Virus genome (UHGV): UHGV-0123923
DNA: 40,997 nt
Source: a virus
Direction: 5' to 3' (one strand)
The translations under genes were made by a program, and so were the position numbers. This document shows positions 39 through 33,040 of the stretch, in pieces (positions within the stretch are counted from its first letter, which is position 1; each line of letters starts with the position of its first letter). The notes beneath the pieces were generated by a model that saw only the letters and a list, made by a program, of their open reading frames with translations, was not told where the DNA came from and made no database searches.

Positions 39-1988
39 ATGTCAAGCGGATGCGGTGACGTTTTAAGCCTGGCGGATTTACAGACCGCCAAGAAACACCA
101 AATTTTTGAAGCCGAGGTTATCACTGGTAAATCCGGCGGCGTTGCTGGTGGCTCTGATATCGATTACGCGACAAATCAGGTTACTGGACAGACCCAGAAG
201 ACGTTACCCGCCGTGTTGCGCGACGCCGGCTTTTCCTCCGTGTCGTGGGACTTTTCCACGGGTGGTACATTAACAGTTAATGACCGCGACAAAGTAGTGT
301 ATGACCCTGTAAGTAAGACCTGGTACTCGTATGCGGGTACGTTGCCTGCTGTAATCCCCGCCAGTTTTAACCCAGTAGGAAACGCTAACTGGAAACCACG
401 GACCGATCCATATTTGAGGGACGATTTGTCTGGATTGGATGGTATATATAATATTGGTGCAGCAAACTACGCAGATATCCGCGCATATACAGGCCCAGCG
501 GACCGCATTAACTGCTACGGTAGAAGCTCTGTTTTTGATAATGCTTCTGGGTATTTCTTTGCGGATTCATCCGATACGACAACCCCAGACAATGACGGAA
601 CTGTGCTGGTCGATGCGTCCGGTCGTCGCTGGAAGCGCAGCTATACAGGGCCTGTCGACGCCCGCTGGTTCGGAGTTACGGCAAACGGGAGCACGGATGA
701 CACCGTTGCCGCTAACAAAGCGCTGGCAACACTACAACATGTAGTCTTCCCGGTAGGCACAATAATAATCAGTGCACCTCTTATCTTTGGTACTCAGACC
801 ATCGAAGGCGCCGGAACTTATCCAAATGGCGCCTACGGTACTATCATCCAGTGTACAGGCGACCATGCAGCATTTGAGCATGCTCCTACGGGGTATCAGC
901 CAGGAGGTATTATTCGTAACTTTTGGATTAATTATCAGGCGGGGAAACCAACTATAACCACTGGAAATGCAAAAGGTGTTAACTTCGGTACGTCCGACAC
1001 GTCTATTGATCCACTGGCTAATGGCGCGACCAAATTTATAGTAGAAAACGTCATTGTCCGTGGTGCTTATTGGGGCTTCTATGATGTAACGTCTACATAT
1101 TTAATGGAGTACAGGAACTGCTGGGCATGGGACTGCTATGTTGGGTTTAAAAAGCAGTACGGAACTACCGTAAAATACAGTTCTTGTTACGCACTGGACT
1201 GCTACGGCTCGTGGGATATGCAAGATAGTCACTGCGCCACCTTTGAGAACTGCGCCTACGACGGCACAAGCATCATCGGCAACATTAAACCTATTTACTT
1301 CAAAGGATGCCCAGGCGTCACAATTAATGGGATGCAGCATGAAGCCAGTAAAATTGACGTTTCAGGACGTGGGGATTTTGTTATTGAAAACTGCGTTGGG
1401 TTTGTGCTTAACGGCATGTCAATTCCGTCCTGGCTTAATACGTTAACTACCGGAGAAGCATATCTATTCGAGATTATAAACTCCACGGCAGACATAAAGG
1501 GAGTAGCCCTCTCTGCGGATGCCGCTAATGTGAAAAGCTCGGGTGCGAATACGTATTTATTTAACGCCAAGAGCGGAAGTATCGTCAATGTTTCGGCCAG
1601 CGGGCTACCGGCTGTGGCTGGGTCATCTTTCAATTACAGCATGTCGGCAGACAGTACCAGCAGAATCGACAGAACGCCAAGTGCGGTAATTGGCGGCTTG
1701 ACCGCCGGGGCGGTGTTCCGTAACGGCGTGTCCTCGCCTGTGTATGTGGATTACAATTCTGTTACGATTGCCGCTGGTGCGGTCGCATTGATTGGCACCG
1801 TAACCCTTCCTGGCGTGCAATATCAGGATTTCCTGATGGCTGACTCATCAACAGGGGTGAATGGTTGTACTATAGATGTTGTGCGGCCCGCAGGCGCAGC
1901 TGGGAGTGTTAATGTTTATATCAGGAACAACAATACCTCCCCTGTCACCCTCACAGGCCAGATCGCAATAAGATATCTTAGACCATAA
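39..1988 (+). CDS. tail spike / tail fibre protein, probable beta-helix (pectin-lyase-like) receptor-binding or depolymerase domain
   Basis: 649 aa ORF with AAGAGGA RBS 6 nt upstream of ATG; Gly/Asn/Thr/Val-rich repetitive middle region typical of right-handed beta-helix tailspikes; sits next to the tail genes if the window ends are joined. Confidence 0.55.
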   Translation: MSSGCGDVLSLADLQTAKKHQIFEAEVITGKSGGVAGGSDIDYATNQVTGQTQKTLPAVLRDAGFSSVSWDFSTGGTLTVNDRDKVVYDPVSKTWYSYAGTLPAVIPASFNPVGNANWKPRTDPYLRDDLSGLDGIYNIGAANYADIRAYTGPADRINCYGRSSVFDNASGYFFADSSDTTTPDNDGTVLVDASGRRWKRSYTGPVDARWFGVTANGSTDDTVAANKALATLQHVVFPVGTIIISAPLIFGTQTIEGAGTYPNGAYGTIIQCTGDHAAFEHAPTGYQPGGIIRNFWINYQAGKPTITTGNAKGVNFGTSDTSIDPLANGATKFIVENVIVRGAYWGFYDVTSTYLMEYRNCWAWDCYVGFKKQYGTTVKYSSCYALDCYGSWDMQDSHCATFENCAYDGTSIIGNIKPIYFKGCPGVTINGMQHEASKIDVSGRGDFVIENCVGFVLNGMSIPSWLNTLTTGEAYLFEIINSTADIKGVALSADAANVKSSGANTYLFNAKSGSIVNVSASGLPAVAGSSFNYSMSADSTSRIDRTPSAVIGGLTAGAVFRNGVSSPVYVDYNSVTIAAGAVALIGTVTLPGVQYQDFLMADSSTGVNGCTIDVVRPAGAAGSVNVYIRNNNTSPVTLTGQIAIRYLRP

Positions 1989-1992
1989 AACT

Positions 1993-2016
1993 AAGGCCCC
2001 AAACGGGGCCTTTTCT
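1993..2016. terminator. intrinsic terminator between converging genes
   Basis: AAGGCCCC-AAAC-GGGGCCTT hairpin followed by TTTTCTCT, between the + tail spike gene and the - helicase operon. Confidence 0.55.
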
Positions 2017-3793: not shown

Positions 3794-4081
3794 CTAACTA
3801 TAATAGTTCGCTATTAGGTCGTCAACCTGTTTAAACGAACCAACGACAAAAACATTCGCACCACGTTTACGCATCCGCTCATGTTCCCGTAGCTGGTGCG
3901 GGTCTGGCTTCGTGTTCTCGTCTTTCTTAACCTCGACGAACCAGACTATGCCGCCGGGGATAATTACCAGCAGGTCGGGGGCGCCCGCTCTATTTTCGTA
4001 CGACAATTTGCGTACGAGGCCTCCCAGGGCCTCGAATCGCTCTTTTGCGTATTCCTGCACGCGCCCCTCAGGCGTACTCAT
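3794..4081 (-). CDS. VRR-NUC domain nuclease
   Basis: 95 aa; GGGAGGGG RBS; motifs PDLLVI...VEVK consistent with a PD-(D/E)XK VRR-NUC fold. Confidence 0.7.
   Translation of the reverse strand: MSTPEGRVQEYAKERFEALGGLVRKLSYENRAGAPDLLVIIPGGIVWFVEVKKDENTKPDPHQLREHERMRKRGANVFVVGSFKQVDDLIANYYS
3797..3825 (-). promoter_or_regulatory. sigma70-like promoter (TTGACG-N17-TATAGT) with operator motif, embedded in the 3' end of the VRR-NUC gene
   Basis: minus-strand -35 is the reverse complement of 3820..3825, -10 of 3797..3802; AATAG(3802..3806)-N4-CTATT(3811..3815) palindrome in the spacer. Confidence 0.45.
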
Positions 4082-4174: not shown

Positions 4175-4294
4175 CTACAGATAAATTGCGATGAACATGC
4201 TCAATATGGCAACCATCATGCCGTATTGACCCTCGTGACAGTAGACACCGGCAGCAAATCCCGCCAGTACCGCGATAATCAGTTTACTTGGCAT
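4175..4294 (-). CDS. possible small hydrophobic membrane protein (39 aa)
   Basis: ATG overlaps the DNA polymerase 3' end in another frame; MPSKLIIAVLAGFAAGVYCHEGQYGMMVAILSMFIAIYL; no clear RBS. Confidence 0.25.
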   Translation of the reverse strand: MPSKLIIAVLAGFAAGVYCHEGQYGMMVAILSMFIAIYL

Positions 4295-6464
4295 AACGCT
4301 TCATCTCCGCGCCTTCTGCTACAAGAGGGAACCCCTCGGCCCACTCTGGTAATTCGCACATCAATCGTTCCAGTTCTGCGACATTGTATTCTGGTAAATC
4401 TGGTGTCTCGCAGATAATCTCATCGTGAACATGAAGCACAATCGGGTAGCCGTTTGCTTCGACGTTCAGCAGTGCATTAGCCAACAAATCACGGCACAGC
4501 GCCTGAGTGCAGTTTTCCACCAGTTTACCAGAGTAGGTGTACTGGAAGCCCCACTGACGGGTTAACTGGTTTTCGCCCTGGTACTTGATGCGCACGTTGG
4601 TAGACACCTTCCCGTCTTCGTCTGTCTCTTTCGACACGCTTAACCCGACGCCAGGGTATGACATAACTCGACCAGACGGCAACGTCATACGCAACCACCA
4701 ACCGGCGACTTTGTTGCCGTTGTTGTCCGTTTCTACGTTGCGCGAAAACTTAACTCCCCGCGGCCCTGCGGTGAACTCTTTGCCCGGATTGCGGATAGCT
4801 GCCATAGCTGCGTCTTCAATATCCCGCCAGAAAGCTACTGTTTCCGGGTGTGACTCACGCCACATACGCTTGATAGCGTCGCAGGTACGCCACACTTTCT
4901 TATCAAGAATATAAGATGGTCGGTCATCATTTTCACCTGGACGTGGTGGTCGCTTGGCTTCCTGAATACGCGCCCACTCATATCCACGTGCGGTAGCAGC
5001 CCAGATGTGGTCGGGGAAAGTCCCGTCCATTGTTTTTGCCATATCAACAAGGTCAAGGCCGAGGTTCTTGGCGAACTGTACGAATGCGCCGACACCACCC
5101 GCGTAGCCAAGTCCAAGTTCGCATGCCTTACCAATCTGGCGTAAGTCTTTACGTTCTTTCTTAATGTAATCCGGCTCCATGCCGAACATCTTGCCTGCGG
5201 TTACGCAGTAAATATCCAGCCCGGCACGGAACGTATCAAGCGCGGTTTCTTCGCCAGCCAGCCACGCCAAACCGCGGCCTTCAACGTTCGAGTAGTCGGC
5301 GACGACAAACTTATACCCGGCTTCCGGGATAATGCAGCTGCGAACCGTAGATGCCGTTAGCTTGGCTACATCAAAACGGCGATGTGCTCGGCCCTTAAGT
5401 AATGCTGAAATACCTTTATCCAGTTCATCATCGTGATAGTACCCACGCGCCAGGTTCTGCGGCTGGAAGCCTTTACCCGCAAATCGTAACGTACGTTTAG
5501 CTCCACCATACTGGATGCAACCGCGACGGCGGTCGTCAGACGAGCGGCCTAACAGCAGCGGGTTATATTTCGTTGACGCAGTGGATGCCGCCCCGAGGCG
5601 CATTTCTATAATCGTGCGGGCGTCGTCCGGTAAATCATCGTCAGCAAGCAGGTCGTTAAGCGTAGACTTCTGCGCGTTGTGGATGCGATGCGCAGGCGCC
5701 AGTTCACGCAGAATCGGCAGGAAGTCCTTACCTGTAAGCGAGCCGCCGTATTTACGTTGGGCTTCTTCCTGTAACTGTGCCTTGTGTTTCTCCACAGCTT
5801 CAATTGCGGCTTCCGCCAGCGCAACGTCGACCTTAAACCCGCGGTCGTTAATTAACTGGTCCAGTTCCAGTACACGGTCTTCGAACTCGGAGTTACCCCA
5901 ACGCGGCAACTTATGGAACACTTCACGCATCGCGGTGATGTCGCTAACGGCGTACTTGATGAACAGCGCCCACTCATCCGGGTGCGTTTCAGCAGTGTAG
6001 CGGCGAATTTTGTAGTTCTTCGGCGTCGGTTTAGAGAAACGCTGAATAAGCGCTTTGCCTCGTTTGTCTTTCGCGTTGTCTGCAGACACGCCAAGCACTT
6101 CGCACAATGCGTCGAGTGAACCCGGCAGCGCGTGACGAAACGCCCAAATCATCGTATCAATGGTGTTGCTTACGGGAATATCAAAACCCCAGCAGTGCTT
6201 CATGATGAGTCTGTCGAACATTGAGCCGTTGTGCCACACCATCTTAATACGGCTGTTTGGTTTCACCAGACGGCGTAACGCGCGGTGCAAATCACCCGGC
6301 ATGTCGCTGCCGTTGGTGCAATCCCATACCTGCACAGGCTCGTCGTCAAAAGCATATGTGCAGATTAGAACTTCGGTGGTTGGATGTTCGGCGTAAGCGT
6401 AGGAGCCGACTTTCTTCAAATCGGCTTCTGAGAATGTTTCAAAGTCTAAGAACAGGTAACTCAT
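4284..6464 (-). CDS. family A DNA polymerase with N-terminal 3'-5' exonuclease domain
   Basis: 726 aa; exo motif FLDFETFS; polymerase motifs DYSNVEGRGLAWLAGE (A), RQIGKACELGLGYAGG (B), VLHVHDEIICE (C). Confidence 0.9.
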   Translation of the reverse strand: MSYLFLDFETFSEADLKKVGSYAYAEHPTTEVLICTYAFDDEPVQVWDCTNGSDMPGDLHRALRRLVKPNSRIKMVWHNGSMFDRLIMKHCWGFDIPVSNTIDTMIWAFRHALPGSLDALCEVLGVSADNAKDKRGKALIQRFSKPTPKNYKIRRYTAETHPDEWALFIKYAVSDITAMREVFHKLPRWGNSEFEDRVLELDQLINDRGFKVDVALAEAAIEAVEKHKAQLQEEAQRKYGGSLTGKDFLPILRELAPAHRIHNAQKSTLNDLLADDDLPDDARTIIEMRLGAASTASTKYNPLLLGRSSDDRRRGCIQYGGAKRTLRFAGKGFQPQNLARGYYHDDELDKGISALLKGRAHRRFDVAKLTASTVRSCIIPEAGYKFVVADYSNVEGRGLAWLAGEETALDTFRAGLDIYCVTAGKMFGMEPDYIKKERKDLRQIGKACELGLGYAGGVGAFVQFAKNLGLDLVDMAKTMDGTFPDHIWAATARGYEWARIQEAKRPPRPGENDDRPSYILDKKVWRTCDAIKRMWRESHPETVAFWRDIEDAAMAAIRNPGKEFTAGPRGVKFSRNVETDNNGNKVAGWWLRMTLPSGRVMSYPGVGLSVSKETDEDGKVSTNVRIKYQGENQLTRQWGFQYTYSGKLVENCTQALCRDLLANALLNVEANGYPIVLHVHDEIICETPDLPEYNVAELERLMCELPEWAEGFPLVAEGAEMKRYAK

Positions 6465-6481
6465 TATTTTTGACCCTTAGT

Positions 6482-6503
6482 AAAAAGGCCCAATGAAGGG
6501 CCT
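6482..6503 (-). terminator. intrinsic terminator/attenuator between the SSB-like gene and the DNA polymerase gene
   Basis: minus-strand GGCCC-TTCATT-GGGCC followed by TTTTTA, immediately upstream of the polymerase RBS. Confidence 0.5.
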
Positions 6504-6523
6504 TAGTTAAATTGATTCAGATA

Positions 6524-7150
6524 TTAGCGACGACGACGCTCGCGGCGCGGTGCTTCATCTTCTTCGTCGTCTTCCAGGTCATTTACGCTGGCAGCGACTT
6601 TAGAACCGCCAAACGCTTTGCCTTCGCCAATGTATTTAATCGCCAGCAGGTTAACGCCGAGGACTTTATATTTCTGACTGAACCAGATTTCAACGCTTAC
6701 GTTAGCGACGCAGCCGCTGTAAACCTGTTCACCTTCAATCTGTTCGCCGTCTACATTGAAGTCCTGTTCTACCTGAGTCTCGCCTTTTTTAGAGGTTACA
6801 ATCAGTGGCTGTTTCTGTGCCTTCGCCTTGAAGTAGAAGCCTTCCGGGAAGTCTTCAAACGGATTGTCGCGCTCGGCAATGTCTTTAATCGCACATTTAT
6901 CCATGTGCTTACCTTCGCCGTAGTTGGACTTCATCCACTTCTCAGCGGCAGCTGCGCCCAACGCTTCTTCAACCACAGCGTAAACGGTGTCGTAGAGCGC
7001 GTCGATTTGTGCGTGGTCAGACGGCAGGATGATAGTCGCGCTGTACTGGCCTTTAGTGATTGAGCCATCATCGTTTTCACGGTCTTTTTCGCGTTCGAAT
7101 ACGTTAACCCATGCAGTGTTTACTTTACGCAGATTCAGTTTAATACCCAT
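6524..7150 (-). CDS. putative ssDNA-binding protein (DUF2815-like)
   Basis: 208 aa; acidic patch DLEDDEEDEAP near the C-terminus followed by an Arg-rich tail; position between exonuclease and polymerase; family assignment from memory. Confidence 0.45.
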   Translation of the reverse strand: MGIKLNLRKVNTAWVNVFEREKDRENDDGSITKGQYSATIILPSDHAQIDALYDTVYAVVEEALGAAAAEKWMKSNYGEGKHMDKCAIKDIAERDNPFEDFPEGFYFKAKAQKQPLIVTSKKGETQVEQDFNVDGEQIEGEQVYSGCVANVSVEIWFSQKYKVLGVNLLAIKYIGEGKAFGGSKVAASVNDLEDDEEDEAPRRERRRR

Positions 7151-7203
7151 CGTGATTTCTCGCTTTTCAGTTTACTCCGGGAACTGCCCGGCCAGTGATT
7201 AGA

Positions 7204-7232
7204 ACTATAATAGCTAACTATTCGGGTGTCAA
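7204..7232 (-). promoter_or_regulatory. sigma70-like promoter (TTGACA-N17-TATAGT) with operator motif
   Basis: -35 is the reverse complement of 7227..7232, -10 of 7204..7209; AATAG(7209..7213)-CTAA-CTATT(7218..7222). Confidence 0.45.
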
Positions 7233-7236
7233 CACT

Positions 7237-8490
7237 TTATTCCAAATCTTCTTCACTAACCTGATTCCACTCAGGACGTTTGTCGTCTGCCGTTGCGACA
7301 CATGGTGCGCCTGGCTTACGGGTAATAAACGGCTCAAGCGCTGCCATCTCATCCGCCGAAAGAACTTTTGCTGCCTCCGTAGGGGTCATCAATACCTCTT
7401 TTTTGAGAATGTCGCCGTGTGACACTTCAATCGCATCGGCATCTTTCCACGCACGGTTGCCCATCTTACCTTCAACCAGCTTGTACCCAGGAACTTTCTT
7501 ACCGGAATGCAATGCGGCGGTCATCGCTTTCTCAACCTTGTCGATGTGCTGGCGTAACAGCGGCAACTTCTCATACTCAACTACGAGTTGCTCCGTCGTC
7601 AGTTCCAGCACAAAGTCGTCTTCAAGTTCTTCCGCCAGTACAGAATTAACCGTCTTTGTACGCGCGGCACACTGTTCAGAGAACCGGCACCACTGGCAAC
7701 CATCGACCGACGGTTTAAAGTCCGACGCTTTCAGGTTCTTCTTTCCACGGAAATAAGCATCAAGCGCTAACAGTGCCCGTTTCTGTGCGAACTTAGCGAA
7801 CAGTTCCAGACCTTCGACCGAGATGTCCCACTCTGACGCACCCCCCGCGTACGGCTGGAAGATGACCAGGCGCACTACTGTGATGTTATAACGTCTCTTG
7901 AGTCGGCGATAAACACCGAGAGCGTAAAGCATAAGCTGCTTGTTTTCTTTCGCTTCAACACGATGCCGTCCAGTTTTAAGGTCGCCAATAATGAGCATGT
8001 GCTCGTCGGTGTTCGCCAGTTCCTGGACAGCAACGAGGTCAGCCGTTCCGAACGTCTCGACACCTTCATACCCAGGATGCAATACCTCAGTAAGATTGAC
8101 TCGCATTTCCAGCTTGGCGTAAGTCGCTACGTCGATAATCGCTTTGCAGTAGTCGGTGTACTTGCGCACCTGCTCAATCATGTCCGCCGTAATCAGTACC
8201 GCGCCTTTCATTGGGCTGATTAGCGCCTTAATCTGGCCTTTACCTTCATCCAGCACGTAAGCGCCGACTTCACGCTCTAACGGCAGCGCAGCACCTTTGA
8301 TGTACTGGTTAAGATGCATCTCGGCTATGGTGTGCATAGCTGTGCCTAATACCGCGGCTTTACCGGACGTGTTAGGAATATCTTTTTCACAGGCCAGAGA
8401 AGCCGGGCAGGTTAGCCACTTTTTAGCGCCTGACGGTGATAGTAAGGCGTGTACATCGTTATTGCCGCCGCGCTCTTTTAGAATCATCAT
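7237..8490 (-). CDS. Cas4/RecB-like PD-(D/E)XK exonuclease with Fe-S cluster cysteines
   Basis: 417 aa; GGAGGG RBS; N-terminal Cys (LTCPASLAC), core IIGDLKTG, C-terminal C-x2-C-x5-C (CQWCRFSEQC). Confidence 0.7.
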   Translation of the reverse strand: MMILKERGGNNDVHALLSPSGAKKWLTCPASLACEKDIPNTSGKAAVLGTAMHTIAEMHLNQYIKGAALPLEREVGAYVLDEGKGQIKALISPMKGAVLITADMIEQVRKYTDYCKAIIDVATYAKLEMRVNLTEVLHPGYEGVETFGTADLVAVQELANTDEHMLIIGDLKTGRHRVEAKENKQLMLYALGVYRRLKRRYNITVVRLVIFQPYAGGASEWDISVEGLELFAKFAQKRALLALDAYFRGKKNLKASDFKPSVDGCQWCRFSEQCAARTKTVNSVLAEELEDDFVLELTTEQLVVEYEKLPLLRQHIDKVEKAMTAALHSGKKVPGYKLVEGKMGNRAWKDADAIEVSHGDILKKEVLMTPTEAAKVLSADEMAALEPFITRKPGAPCVATADDKRPEWNQVSEEDLE

Positions 8491-9608: not shown

Positions 9609-9637
9609 AACTATAATAGCGAACTATTCACTTGTCA
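9609..9637 (-). promoter_or_regulatory. sigma70-like promoter (TTGACA-N17-TATAGT) with operator motif
   Basis: -35 is the reverse complement of 9632..9637, -10 of 9609..9614; AATAG(9614..9618)-CGAA-CTATT(9623..9627). Confidence 0.5.
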
Positions 9638-9641
9638 ATGG

Positions 9642-9671
9642 GCTTTTCTAAAATAATTAATATGGTACTAT
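9642..9671 (+). promoter_or_regulatory. operator motif with weak promoter upstream of the Cro-like gene
   Basis: AATAT(9658..9662)-GGTA-CTATT(9667..9671); TACTAT -10 at 9665..9670; poor -35 (TTTTCT). Confidence 0.35.
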
Positions 9672-9702
9672 TCACATATCAACTGACTAAGGAGTAATTG
9701 GC

Positions 9703-12451: not shown

Positions 12452-12727
12452 TTATTCCAGGTCGCGGGAGATATTACCCTCGGGCACCAACACTTTTCCA
12501 ATACTTCTCGCTTTCTCTGTAATAGGCGTCGCTCTTGTTGCCCGATAAAACTTTCCTTTATTAAGAATCTCACCATGTCGCTCGAGCACATCTAAAGCAT
12601 GTTTGATCGGGTTTACACCGTAATTATCCAACCGGTATCTCCGAAGCCCGTCTACCGTAAAAGCGCCGTTCGCTTCGGTCAGTCTGCGTGCACACATTAA
12701 TATGTGTTTCTGGAATTTAGTTAGCAT
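12452..12727 (-). CDS. hypothetical protein (~91 aa)
   Basis: start placed at the ATG behind a TAAGGAGA RBS; the longer upstream extension in the ORF track is likely spurious. Confidence 0.4.
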   Translation of the reverse strand: MLTKFQKHILMCARRLTEANGAFTVDGLRRYRLDNYGVNPIKHALDVLERHGEILNKGKFYRATRATPITEKARSIGKVLVPEGNISRDLE

Positions 12728-12896
12728 CTTTAACGTTCTCCTTAATCCACGCCTCCACAGTAGCGCGGTCAAAGGTACCTGGCTGACGGTAGCCGTTGAT
12801 AACGCGGCAACACTCCGGGAACTTTCCTGACCGAAGCCAGCGATTAAGAGTCATAGGGGAAACCCCGATTAAGTCTGCTACTTCTTTCTGTGTCAT
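12717..12896 (-). CDS. AlpA/excisionase-like small HTH DNA-binding protein
   Basis: start placed at ATG (MTQKEVADLIGVSPMTLNRWL) behind a GAGAGGG RBS; first gene of the primase operon. Confidence 0.55.
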   Translation of the reverse strand: MTQKEVADLIGVSPMTLNRWLRSGKFPECCRVINGYRQPGTFDRATVEAWIKENVKDAN

Positions 12897-12925
12897 TTTA
12901 CGCGCCCTCTCTATCAAGTGAAACA

Positions 12926-12954
12926 ACTATAACACCTACAATAGACAAACACAA
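12926..12954 (-). promoter_or_regulatory. candidate promoter of the primase operon (TTGTGT-N17-TATAGT)
   Basis: -10 is the reverse complement of 12926..12931; AATAG(12940..12944) and CTATT(12956..12960) arms flank the -35. Confidence 0.3.
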
Positions 12955-13053: not shown

Positions 13054-13073
13054 GCCCCGCCATAAAGCGGGGC
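13054..13073. other. conserved GC hairpin element, copy 1 (GCCCCGC-CATAAA-GCGGGGC)
   Basis: 7 bp perfect stem; same stem and flanks recur inverted at 24547..24566. Confidence 0.5.
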
Positions 13074-13317: not shown

Positions 13318-13346
13318 TTGCACACCCCAACATAATAGGATACTAT
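13318..13346 (+). promoter_or_regulatory. promoter (TTGCAC-N17-TACTAT) with operator motif, for the rightward small-gene block
   Basis: TTGCAC 13318..13323, TACTAT 13341..13346; AATAG(13334..13338)-GATA-CTATT(13343..13347); ~36/39 nt identical to the reverse-strand promoter at 33012..33040. Confidence 0.55.
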
Positions 13347-13380
13347 TCACTTATCGAAACGAGACAGAGGAGTGAGGGTT

Positions 13381-14611: not shown

Positions 14612-14640
14612 TTGCACACTGGGATAGAATAGGCTACTAT
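14612..14640 (+). promoter_or_regulatory. promoter (TTGCAC-N17-TACTAT) with operator motif
   Basis: TTGCAC 14612..14617, TACTAT 14635..14640; AATAG(14628..14632)-GCTA-CTATT(14637..14641). Confidence 0.55.
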
Positions 14641-14670
14641 TCATTTACACGAGCGAGAGGAGAGACAGAG

Positions 14671-17556: not shown

Positions 17557-17577
17557 TCTATCTTCCGCAATGACTAG

Positions 17578-26789: not shown

Positions 26790-26810
26790 GGGGCTTCGGC
26801 CCCTTTTTAC
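26790..26810 (+). terminator. intrinsic terminator after the major capsid gene
   Basis: GGGGC-TTCG-GCCCC followed by TTTTTAC. Confidence 0.7.
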
Positions 26811-30558: not shown

Positions 30559-30581
30559 AGGCCCCGAAAGGGGCCTTTTTC
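30559..30581. terminator. bidirectional intrinsic terminator
   Basis: AGGCCCC-GAAA-GGGGCCT flanked by A-run upstream and TTTTT downstream, between converging + and - genes. Confidence 0.65.
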
Positions 30582-32981: not shown

Positions 32982-33011
32982 TTTAAACCCCTTCATTGTT
33001 GGTGTAAGTGA

Positions 33012-33040
33012 ATAGTACCCTATTATATTGGGGTGCGCAA
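33012..33040 (-). promoter_or_regulatory. promoter (TTGCGC-N17-TACTAT) with operator motif, driving the reverse-strand accessory cassette
   Basis: -35 is the reverse complement of 33035..33040, -10 of 33012..33017; AATAG(33011..33015)-TACC-CTATT(33020..33024); near-identical to promoter 13318..13346. Confidence 0.5.

Follow-up and report, generated by a model that had tools for sequence, protein, structure and literature searches.

What is the function of the short G+C-rich hairpin that separates the gene for a single-stranded DNA-binding protein (SSB) from the DNA polymerase gene in a coliphage genome, and how does the polymerase gene beyond it come to be expressed? The hairpin lies in the virus genome UHGV-0123923, the whole 40,997-nucleotide stretch of which was analysed and is referred to here as the window. 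The window represents a Kagunavirus (a K1H/K1G-like coliphage of the subfamily Guernseyvirinae), and its region 5800–7300 shares 99.5–99.9% identity with Escherichia phages K1H, K1G, fTaEco03 and their relatives. On the minus strand, a DUF2800/PD-(D/E)XK nuclease gene (7237–8490), the exonuclease gene of the initial annotation, precedes an Enc34-type (DUF2815, gp2.5-like) SSB gene (6524..7150; PF10991, E 5.8e-16), the product of which is named 'ssDNA binding and annealing protein' in the BASEL annotation of the close relative Bas74. The SSB gene is followed on the same strand by a family-A DNA polymerase gene with an N-terminal 3′–5′ exonuclease (4284..6464; PF00476). The SSB stop codon is located at 6526–6524 and the polymerase ATG at 6464–6462.

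From the SSB stop codon to the polymerase start codon, the minus strand reads TAA tatctgaatcaatttaact AAGGCCC TTCATT GGGCCTT TTTAC TAAGGGTCAAAAATA ATG. Folding and terminator scoring both identified the stem-loop AAGGCCC-UUCAUU-GGGCCUU (6485..6504, minus strand), in which the 5′ arm occupies 6504–6498, the loop 6497–6492 and the 3′ arm 6491–6485, with the G-C core at 6502..6487. The adjoining U-rich tail UUUUUACU (6479..6486, minus strand; T score 3.89) consists of a run of five T (U5 in the transcript; 6486–6482), the first two of which can pair with the AA at the stem base, and continues as ACUAA; hairpin and U5 together span 6504..6482. Counted from the SSB stop codon, the stem begins after 20 nt and its G-C core after 22 nt, which places the element in sense orientation and outside the footprint of a terminating ribosome. 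The ribosome-binding site AAGGG (6474..6478, minus strand) of the gene 3′ of the terminator, here the polymerase gene, comes 8 nt after the end of the hairpin in this genome. Compared with the usual anatomy of an intrinsic terminator, a G+C-rich stem-loop of about 5–14 bp with a loop of 3–8 nt, the hairpin has five G-C and two A-U pairs and a 6-nt loop. A U-rich tract is present directly 3′ of the stem but is shorter than the canonical 7–9 nt, and only partial efficiency is therefore expected.

The isolated hairpin has a calculated folding energy of −13.0 kcal/mol with 7 bp or −11.7 kcal/mol with 6 bp (z about −3.4 against shuffles), and the core of five G-C pairs alone accounts for −10.0 kcal/mol. 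Folding prediction in nascent-RNA contexts gave the hairpin an ensemble probability of 0.98–1.0, and it scored d = 14.1 on a d'Aubenton-Carafa-style scale using ViennaRNA energies. Sequence, folding and scoring thus agree on the intrinsic-terminator anatomy, in sense orientation between the two genes, that had been proposed initially. The accompanying label of a strong terminator was not sustained, since the element has a core of only five G-C pairs, a hexaloop and a short U-run and ranks 11th among the 16 terminator candidates with d > 0 in the window. Twelve dinucleotide shuffles of the whole window, scanned on both strands, yielded a mean of about 1.8 candidates with d > 0 against these 16, and about 0.25 on average with d ≥ 14 against 11. 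Candidates as good as the hairpin are ~40-fold commoner in the window than in the shuffles, and this over-representation makes a chance hit in the 59-nt gap very unlikely. A generic terminator scan of the window did not list the hairpin at 6504..6482, presumably because the stem was extended into the A-U pairs, leaving fewer than five T in the tail. An Rfam search of 6000–7400 at a permissive E-value gave no family match at threshold; the sub-threshold chance matches were STnc40 (17.6 bits vs a 45-bit cut-off) and a trypanosomatid snoRNA.

The initial annotation had also held that no promoter lies between the two genes. A relaxed sigma-70 scan of 6800..6440 confirmed this, finding no usable promoter between the SSB stop codon and the polymerase ATG; the −10 hexamer of the sole 8/12 match in the gap falls on the polymerase start codon. 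Further away on the minus strand, three promoters of a single family were identified, each reading TTGAC(A/G)-17-TATAGT and enclosing the palindrome AATAG-N4-CTATT. A sigma-70-type promoter (TTGACA-17-TATAGT; 7204..7232) occupies part of the 86 nt that separate the nuclease gene from the SSB gene. Another of the same sequence (9610..9638) lies further upstream, and its transcripts would cross the nuclease and SSB genes to reach the terminator. The next downstream member of the family (3797..3825) would end the read-through-dependent stretch. The genes downstream of the hairpin are co-directional and lack a promoter of their own, none being found in 6523–6465 or before 3825, so the polymerase gene, a 39-aa ORF, another small ORF and the VRR-NUC gene must depend on read-through, the sources of which are the promoters at 7232..7204 and 9638..9610. 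The 39-aa ORF (4175–4294, minus strand; MPSKLIIAVLAGFAAGVYCHEGQYGMMVAILSMFIAIYL) is hydrophobic and falls below the length cut-off of the ORF list. Its start overlaps the end of the polymerase gene (ATGCCAAGTAA), and it may encode a small membrane protein translationally coupled to the polymerase.

This layout does not support the proposal that the hairpin would set polymerase levels below those of the exonuclease. The exonuclease gene is upstream of the SSB promoter at 7232 and therefore receives only transcripts from further upstream, for example from 9638..9610; the polymerase gene receives the read-through of such upstream transcripts and also of those initiated at 7232..7204. The hairpin is the only minus-strand terminator candidate between those at 13073..13054 and 2010..1995, the latter being a predicted two-way hairpin (1995..2010, minus strand) at the end of the leftward replication gene cluster.

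The promoter at 7232..7204 has conserved counterparts ahead of the SSB gene in Jersey-, Cornell- and Tsm2-type phages, and the SETP3 record annotates it as a promoter. Comparative analysis located a further stem-loop in the 5′UTR of the SSB mRNA, CCGGG-CAGUU-CCCGG (7177..7191, minus strand). Jersey-, Cornell- and hz69-type phages share this conserved stem-loop, which recurs in covarying form as CCCGG/CCGGG in Tsm2 and locus L105 and as CUCGG/CCGAG in locus L092. It could be an mRNA stabiliser or, in the manner of T4 gene 32, a translational operator. As far as these predicted elements show, the SSB gene belongs to a conserved cassette composed of promoter, 5′ hairpin, gene and terminator.

We then compared loci carrying relatives of the SSB gene, drawn from IMG/VR and from phages in GenBank. 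Their SSBs range between 100% and ~35% identity, and the loci covered Kagunavirus, Jerseyvirus, hz69-like phages, Cornellvirus, Serratia phage Tsm2, Dhillonvirus and unclassified contigs. A hairpin with a T-run (d > 0) was present within 110 nt 3′ of the SSB stop codon in 82 of 83 loci and in none of 332 control windows of equal length taken from flanking coding DNA. In nearly all lineages the G-C core starts 18–22 nt after the SSB stop codon; the exceptions are three loci with a spacing of 7–11 nt (11 nt in Tsm2 and 7 nt in two L105-type loci). At least five unrelated stem sequences occupy this same position, namely GGCCC/GGGCC in Kagunavirus, GGCGGC/GUCGCC in Jerseyvirus, GCCCGC/GCGGGC in Cornell- and Dhillonvirus types, GGGGCC/GGCCCC in Tsm2 and CGGCCUC/GAGGCCG in locus L114, so that the structure is kept while the sequence changes. 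The loops vary as well (UUCAUU, UUCG, UGAU, GCAA, UUAAU and others), and every lineage has a T-run after its hairpin. Across the 39 Kagunavirus-type loci there is essentially no change in the G-C core or the T5 run, in contrast to third codon positions of the adjacent SSB gene, which vary heavily. The sole stem substitution seen in these loci, G-C to G-U in L035 and L083, preserves pairing. The spacer upstream of the hairpin is A/U-rich and differs between loci. A MAFFT alignment of 19 hairpin types revealed no single common pairing register, owing to the different loop and stem lengths. The genera may have acquired their hairpins independently instead of inheriting a single one that covaried, and the 'covariation' is therefore to be taken as positional rather than strictly phylogenetic. 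Judged from this comparison, a function of the hairpin at the RNA level is very likely.

An alternative is that the palindrome works in DNA, as a protein-binding site or a joint for gene-cassette recombination, or is simply a chance inverted repeat. Gene content does differ between phages at a boundary located directly after the U-run or at the next ATG. The element is strongly asymmetric, however, with a coding-strand T-run that is invariably 3′ of the hairpin and nothing but AA before it, and stem sequences differ between genera while pairing is kept. A DNA-level role is accordingly very improbable, and a chance inverted repeat is excluded by the counts of 82/83 loci and 0/332 controls together with the shuffle control.

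The initial description of the hairpin as lying directly upstream of the polymerase gene is accurate for this genome and fails in relatives, in which other ORFs come between while the element keeps its place after the SSB stop codon. The gene that starts ~20 nt after the U-run is the polymerase gene in 25 of the 39 Kagunavirus-type loci; in the others it is a ~50-aa Cys-rich ORF (8 loci), a ~110-aa CxxC ORF (4 loci) or an HNH-like ORF (2 loci), and in the two HNH-ORF loci similarity is lost straight after TTTTTAC. Elsewhere, the same slot is occupied by a Mom-like gene in VSiP, a small ORF in HK578 and an unannotated ORF in Tsm2. A displaced polymerase gene has a new ribosome-binding site and no hairpin at its start. 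In most Kagunavirus loci the sequence between the U-run and the ATG is preserved, even with another gene next in line. The hairpin remains next to the SSB gene where the polymerase gene has been moved away, which makes it a 3′ element of the SSB transcription unit and not a polymerase leader.

This linkage bears directly on the idea that the hairpin is a translational operator of the polymerase gene, an RBS-adjacent structure bound by the polymerase in the style of T4/RB69 gp43. The hairpin resembles that operator in being short and placed just upstream of a DNA polymerase ribosome-binding site, 8 nt away, a likeness confined to this genome. In contrast to the gp43 operator, the element travels with the SSB gene, remaining 18–22 nt after its stop codon in relatives with other genes before the polymerase, and it carries a U-run. 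Neither a hairpin linked to the polymerase ribosome-binding site nor a conserved loop was found across the relatives: loop and stem sequences are not conserved between genera, the conserved feature being the T-run. The polymerase is moreover of family A and not of the family-B gp43 type. The linkage to the SSB gene already refutes a gp43-type operator for the most part, and we give this explanation hardly any weight.

The slot after the terminator (6462–6480 in the window, with homologous positions in loci L002–L037 and L040–L042) is a hotspot of gene insertion or replacement. The N-terminal exonuclease region of the polymerase likewise occurs as several mosaic alleles (MSYLFL, MPNLLY, MQDLLF and others). 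In the Serratia phage Tsm2 locus (L041; MW082583.1), 319 nt between the SSB and polymerase genes (2227–2545) are annotated as intergenic. By eye, this stretch appears to encode an unannotated homologue of the ~110-aa CxxC ORF of some Kagunavirus phages, with common stretches that include CATAAACATTTAATAGAAGA..GACCC and GAAGCAGACTATCAGACGTGGTA.

Taken together, the element is probably a partial Rho-independent terminator at the end of the SSB cassette, by which read-through into the polymerase gene and the genes downstream is limited. In the proposed mechanism, host RNA polymerase would start at 9638 or 7232 and reach the U5 run, the GGCCC/GGGCC hairpin would form in the nascent RNA as U5 is transcribed, and a fraction of the transcripts would be released at about 6481–6478, just before the ribosome-binding site of the next gene. 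This would produce plenty of a monocistronic SSB mRNA that carries hairpins at its 5′ and 3′ ends. From the read-through remainder would come the DNA polymerase, the products of the small ORFs that follow and the VRR-NUC nuclease, and the catalytic proteins would thus be kept below the SSB, which is needed stoichiometrically. With a presumably essential, promoterless polymerase gene downstream and with a short stem, a hexaloop and five U, any termination here must be partial; given the 5-U run and only five G-C pairs, its efficiency could be low. We infer that transcription ends here, but only in part, and that the SSB:polymerase ratio is set in this way. SSB mRNA is likely to be much more plentiful than polymerase mRNA, as would suit a stoichiometric as against a catalytic protein.

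Terminator hairpins generally both terminate transcription and protect mRNA 3′ ends. The hairpin might therefore act mainly as a 3′-end protector or processing barrier that stabilises the SSB segment of a polycistronic transcript, blocking 3′–5′ exonucleases after endonucleolytic cleavage and causing little termination. The short U-run and modest stem are compatible with such a role, and the conserved 5′ hairpin on the SSB mRNA would fit a design for stability. A mere exonuclease barrier needs no T-run, though, and one is found directly 3′ of the hairpin in every lineage, with U5 invariant in Kagunavirus. We consider protection as the main function unlikely.

The partial terminator could also be a regulated attenuator, with read-through adjusted, and polymerase expression thereby timed, either by a factor of the phage (an antiterminator, the SSB or the polymerase) or by the state of SSB translation. 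RNA-seq of phage K1B4 assigned the family-A polymerase gene and two downstream methylase genes to the 'late' class and most replication genes to the 'middle' class (PMC12645636). For the polymerase that study gives a temporal class only, without per-gene values, from a poorly synchronised infection in which phage reads peak at about 9% of the total (PMC12645636). Phage K1B4 carries an identical hairpin, and the later class of its polymerase gene is a weak, indirect hint of partial termination, regulated or not. K1B4 was the only transcriptome study that we found for the genus Kagunavirus, and its reads are public (PRJNA939978 / PRJCA028359); literature searches for transcript maps of Jerseyvirus, Dhillonvirus or DUF2815-gene phages returned nothing relevant.

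Regulated attenuation would further be compatible with the many small early proteins that have no assigned function, and with an alternative pairing in Jerseyvirus SETP3 (locus L038, 2100–2170). There, in some truncated RNA contexts, the 5′ arm GGCGGC is predicted to pair instead with GCCGCC in the final SSB Arg codons, an interaction that could be a translation-sensitive competitor. No such pairing, and no other competing antiterminator fold, was predicted in the lineage of the window, where the upstream spacer is A/U-rich and varies between loci; as noted, Rfam gave no family match. PHROGs scans of 20 small ORFs and the curated BASEL annotation of Bas74 contained no Q-, N- or other antiterminator family, although two HTH regulators were seen, and this result amounts to absence of evidence only, many small proteins being functionally unassigned. 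Neither a phage antiterminator nor a recognisable RNA site of the lambda N/nut or Q/qut type, as processive antitermination entails, was identified. The initial suggestion that polymerase expression relies on read-through or antitermination is thus upheld in its first half by the missing promoter, and its second half found neither an antiterminator nor a competing fold to build on. A regulated attenuator is, in our judgement, distinctly unlikely. A more elaborate possibility, to which we attach only a slim chance, is that the cassette, conserved from Kagunavirus to Dhillonvirus, forms a feedback module in which the 5′ hairpin, terminator read-through or both would respond to free SSB or to SSB translation, and the block from the terminator to the ribosome-binding site would serve as a joint for swapping accessory genes. 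If so, expression of the polymerase and of the accessory gene in the slot would be coupled to the amount of ssDNA in the cell.

A terminator at this position is an ordinary arrangement, and the hairpin is already known as a predicted terminator from close relatives. In Golestan (VB_EcoS-Golestan), also a Kagunavirus, terminator T10 is an ARNold-predicted Rho-independent terminator of −11.3 kcal/mol (PMC7203180, Table S5). Its sequence, GGCCCTTCATTGGGCCTTTTTACTAAGG, is identical to that of the window and lies on the same strand after the same SSB gene; unlike in the window, a ~110-aa CxxC ORF separates it from the polymerase gene (loci L019/L060). T10 was reported as a prediction only, without discussion of read-through. 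In vB_SenS-Ent1, of the sister genus Jerseyvirus, a 'putative rho-independent terminator' is annotated between gp38 (an SSB homologue) and gp37 (DNA polymerase) (HE775250.1, 31424–31447), matching the window in position and gene context. The Jerseyvirus element, as seen in SETP3, differs in having the stem GGCGGC/GUCGCC, a UUCG tetraloop and the tail UUUUCUAU, and it is weaker (d = 6.2).

Partial intrinsic terminators inside operons are textbook biology. Well-known internal examples are T1 between rpsU and dnaG in the E. coli rpsU-dnaG-rpoD operon and the rplL-rpoB attenuator. As in the window, an intrinsic terminator stands there between co-directional genes with no promoter after it, and a downstream catalytic enzyme is lowered relative to an abundant upstream protein, as would be the case here. 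Those are cellular operons with measured efficiencies, whereas termination in the window is predicted from sequence, and in the window the upstream gene also has a dedicated promoter. A stable mRNA of its own, structured at the ends, encodes the SSB of phage T4 (the gene 32 product), a fitting arrangement for a stoichiometric protein, and the predicted SSB transcript of the window resembles that mRNA in this respect. Unlike the Enc34-type SSB, to which it is unrelated, gp32 has a 5′ leader that is a proven translational operator.

Overall, the hairpin is a real, selected and ordinary regulatory element, probably an intrinsic terminator of moderate strength by which transcription into the polymerase gene is attenuated. 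We propose that this would explain a high SSB and low polymerase output with host RNA polymerase alone in Guernseyvirinae and Dhillonvirus, which are widespread coliphages and Salmonella phages and include therapeutic candidates. The importance is modest and no general concept is changed. For annotation, the hairpin helps by marking the true boundary of the SSB transcription unit. The position just after it is, as we propose, a natural and tolerated insertion slot with low expression, of possible use in phage engineering.

Two other features of the window were recorded. The two-way hairpin at 1995–2010 separates a convergent tail gene (39–1988, plus strand) from the leftward replication cluster, and it is one of three G+C-rich hairpins with T-runs on both strands (1995–2010, 26790–26803 and 30560–30575) that score as terminators in both directions. 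The palindrome AATAG-N4-CTATT has 11 matches at ≤1 mismatch, six of them exact, against 0.8 expected; sites were located at 3802–3815, 7209–7222, 9615–9628, 9659–9672, 13334–13347, 14628–14641 and 33011–33024, with weaker ones at 17573, 22705, 24333 and 40114. Those of the minus-strand promoters at 9638, 7232 and 3825 fall between the −35 and −10 elements of near-consensus sigma-70 promoters. The same palindrome is the PHIRE 'phage promoter' motif reported for Golestan and fBC-Eco01, and was attributed in the fBC-Eco01 paper to a phage RNA polymerase. An RNA polymerase gene is absent from the annotated relatives, and the palindrome more probably serves as the operator of one of the two HTH regulators of the phage (9703–9918, plus strand; 12717–12926, minus strand).
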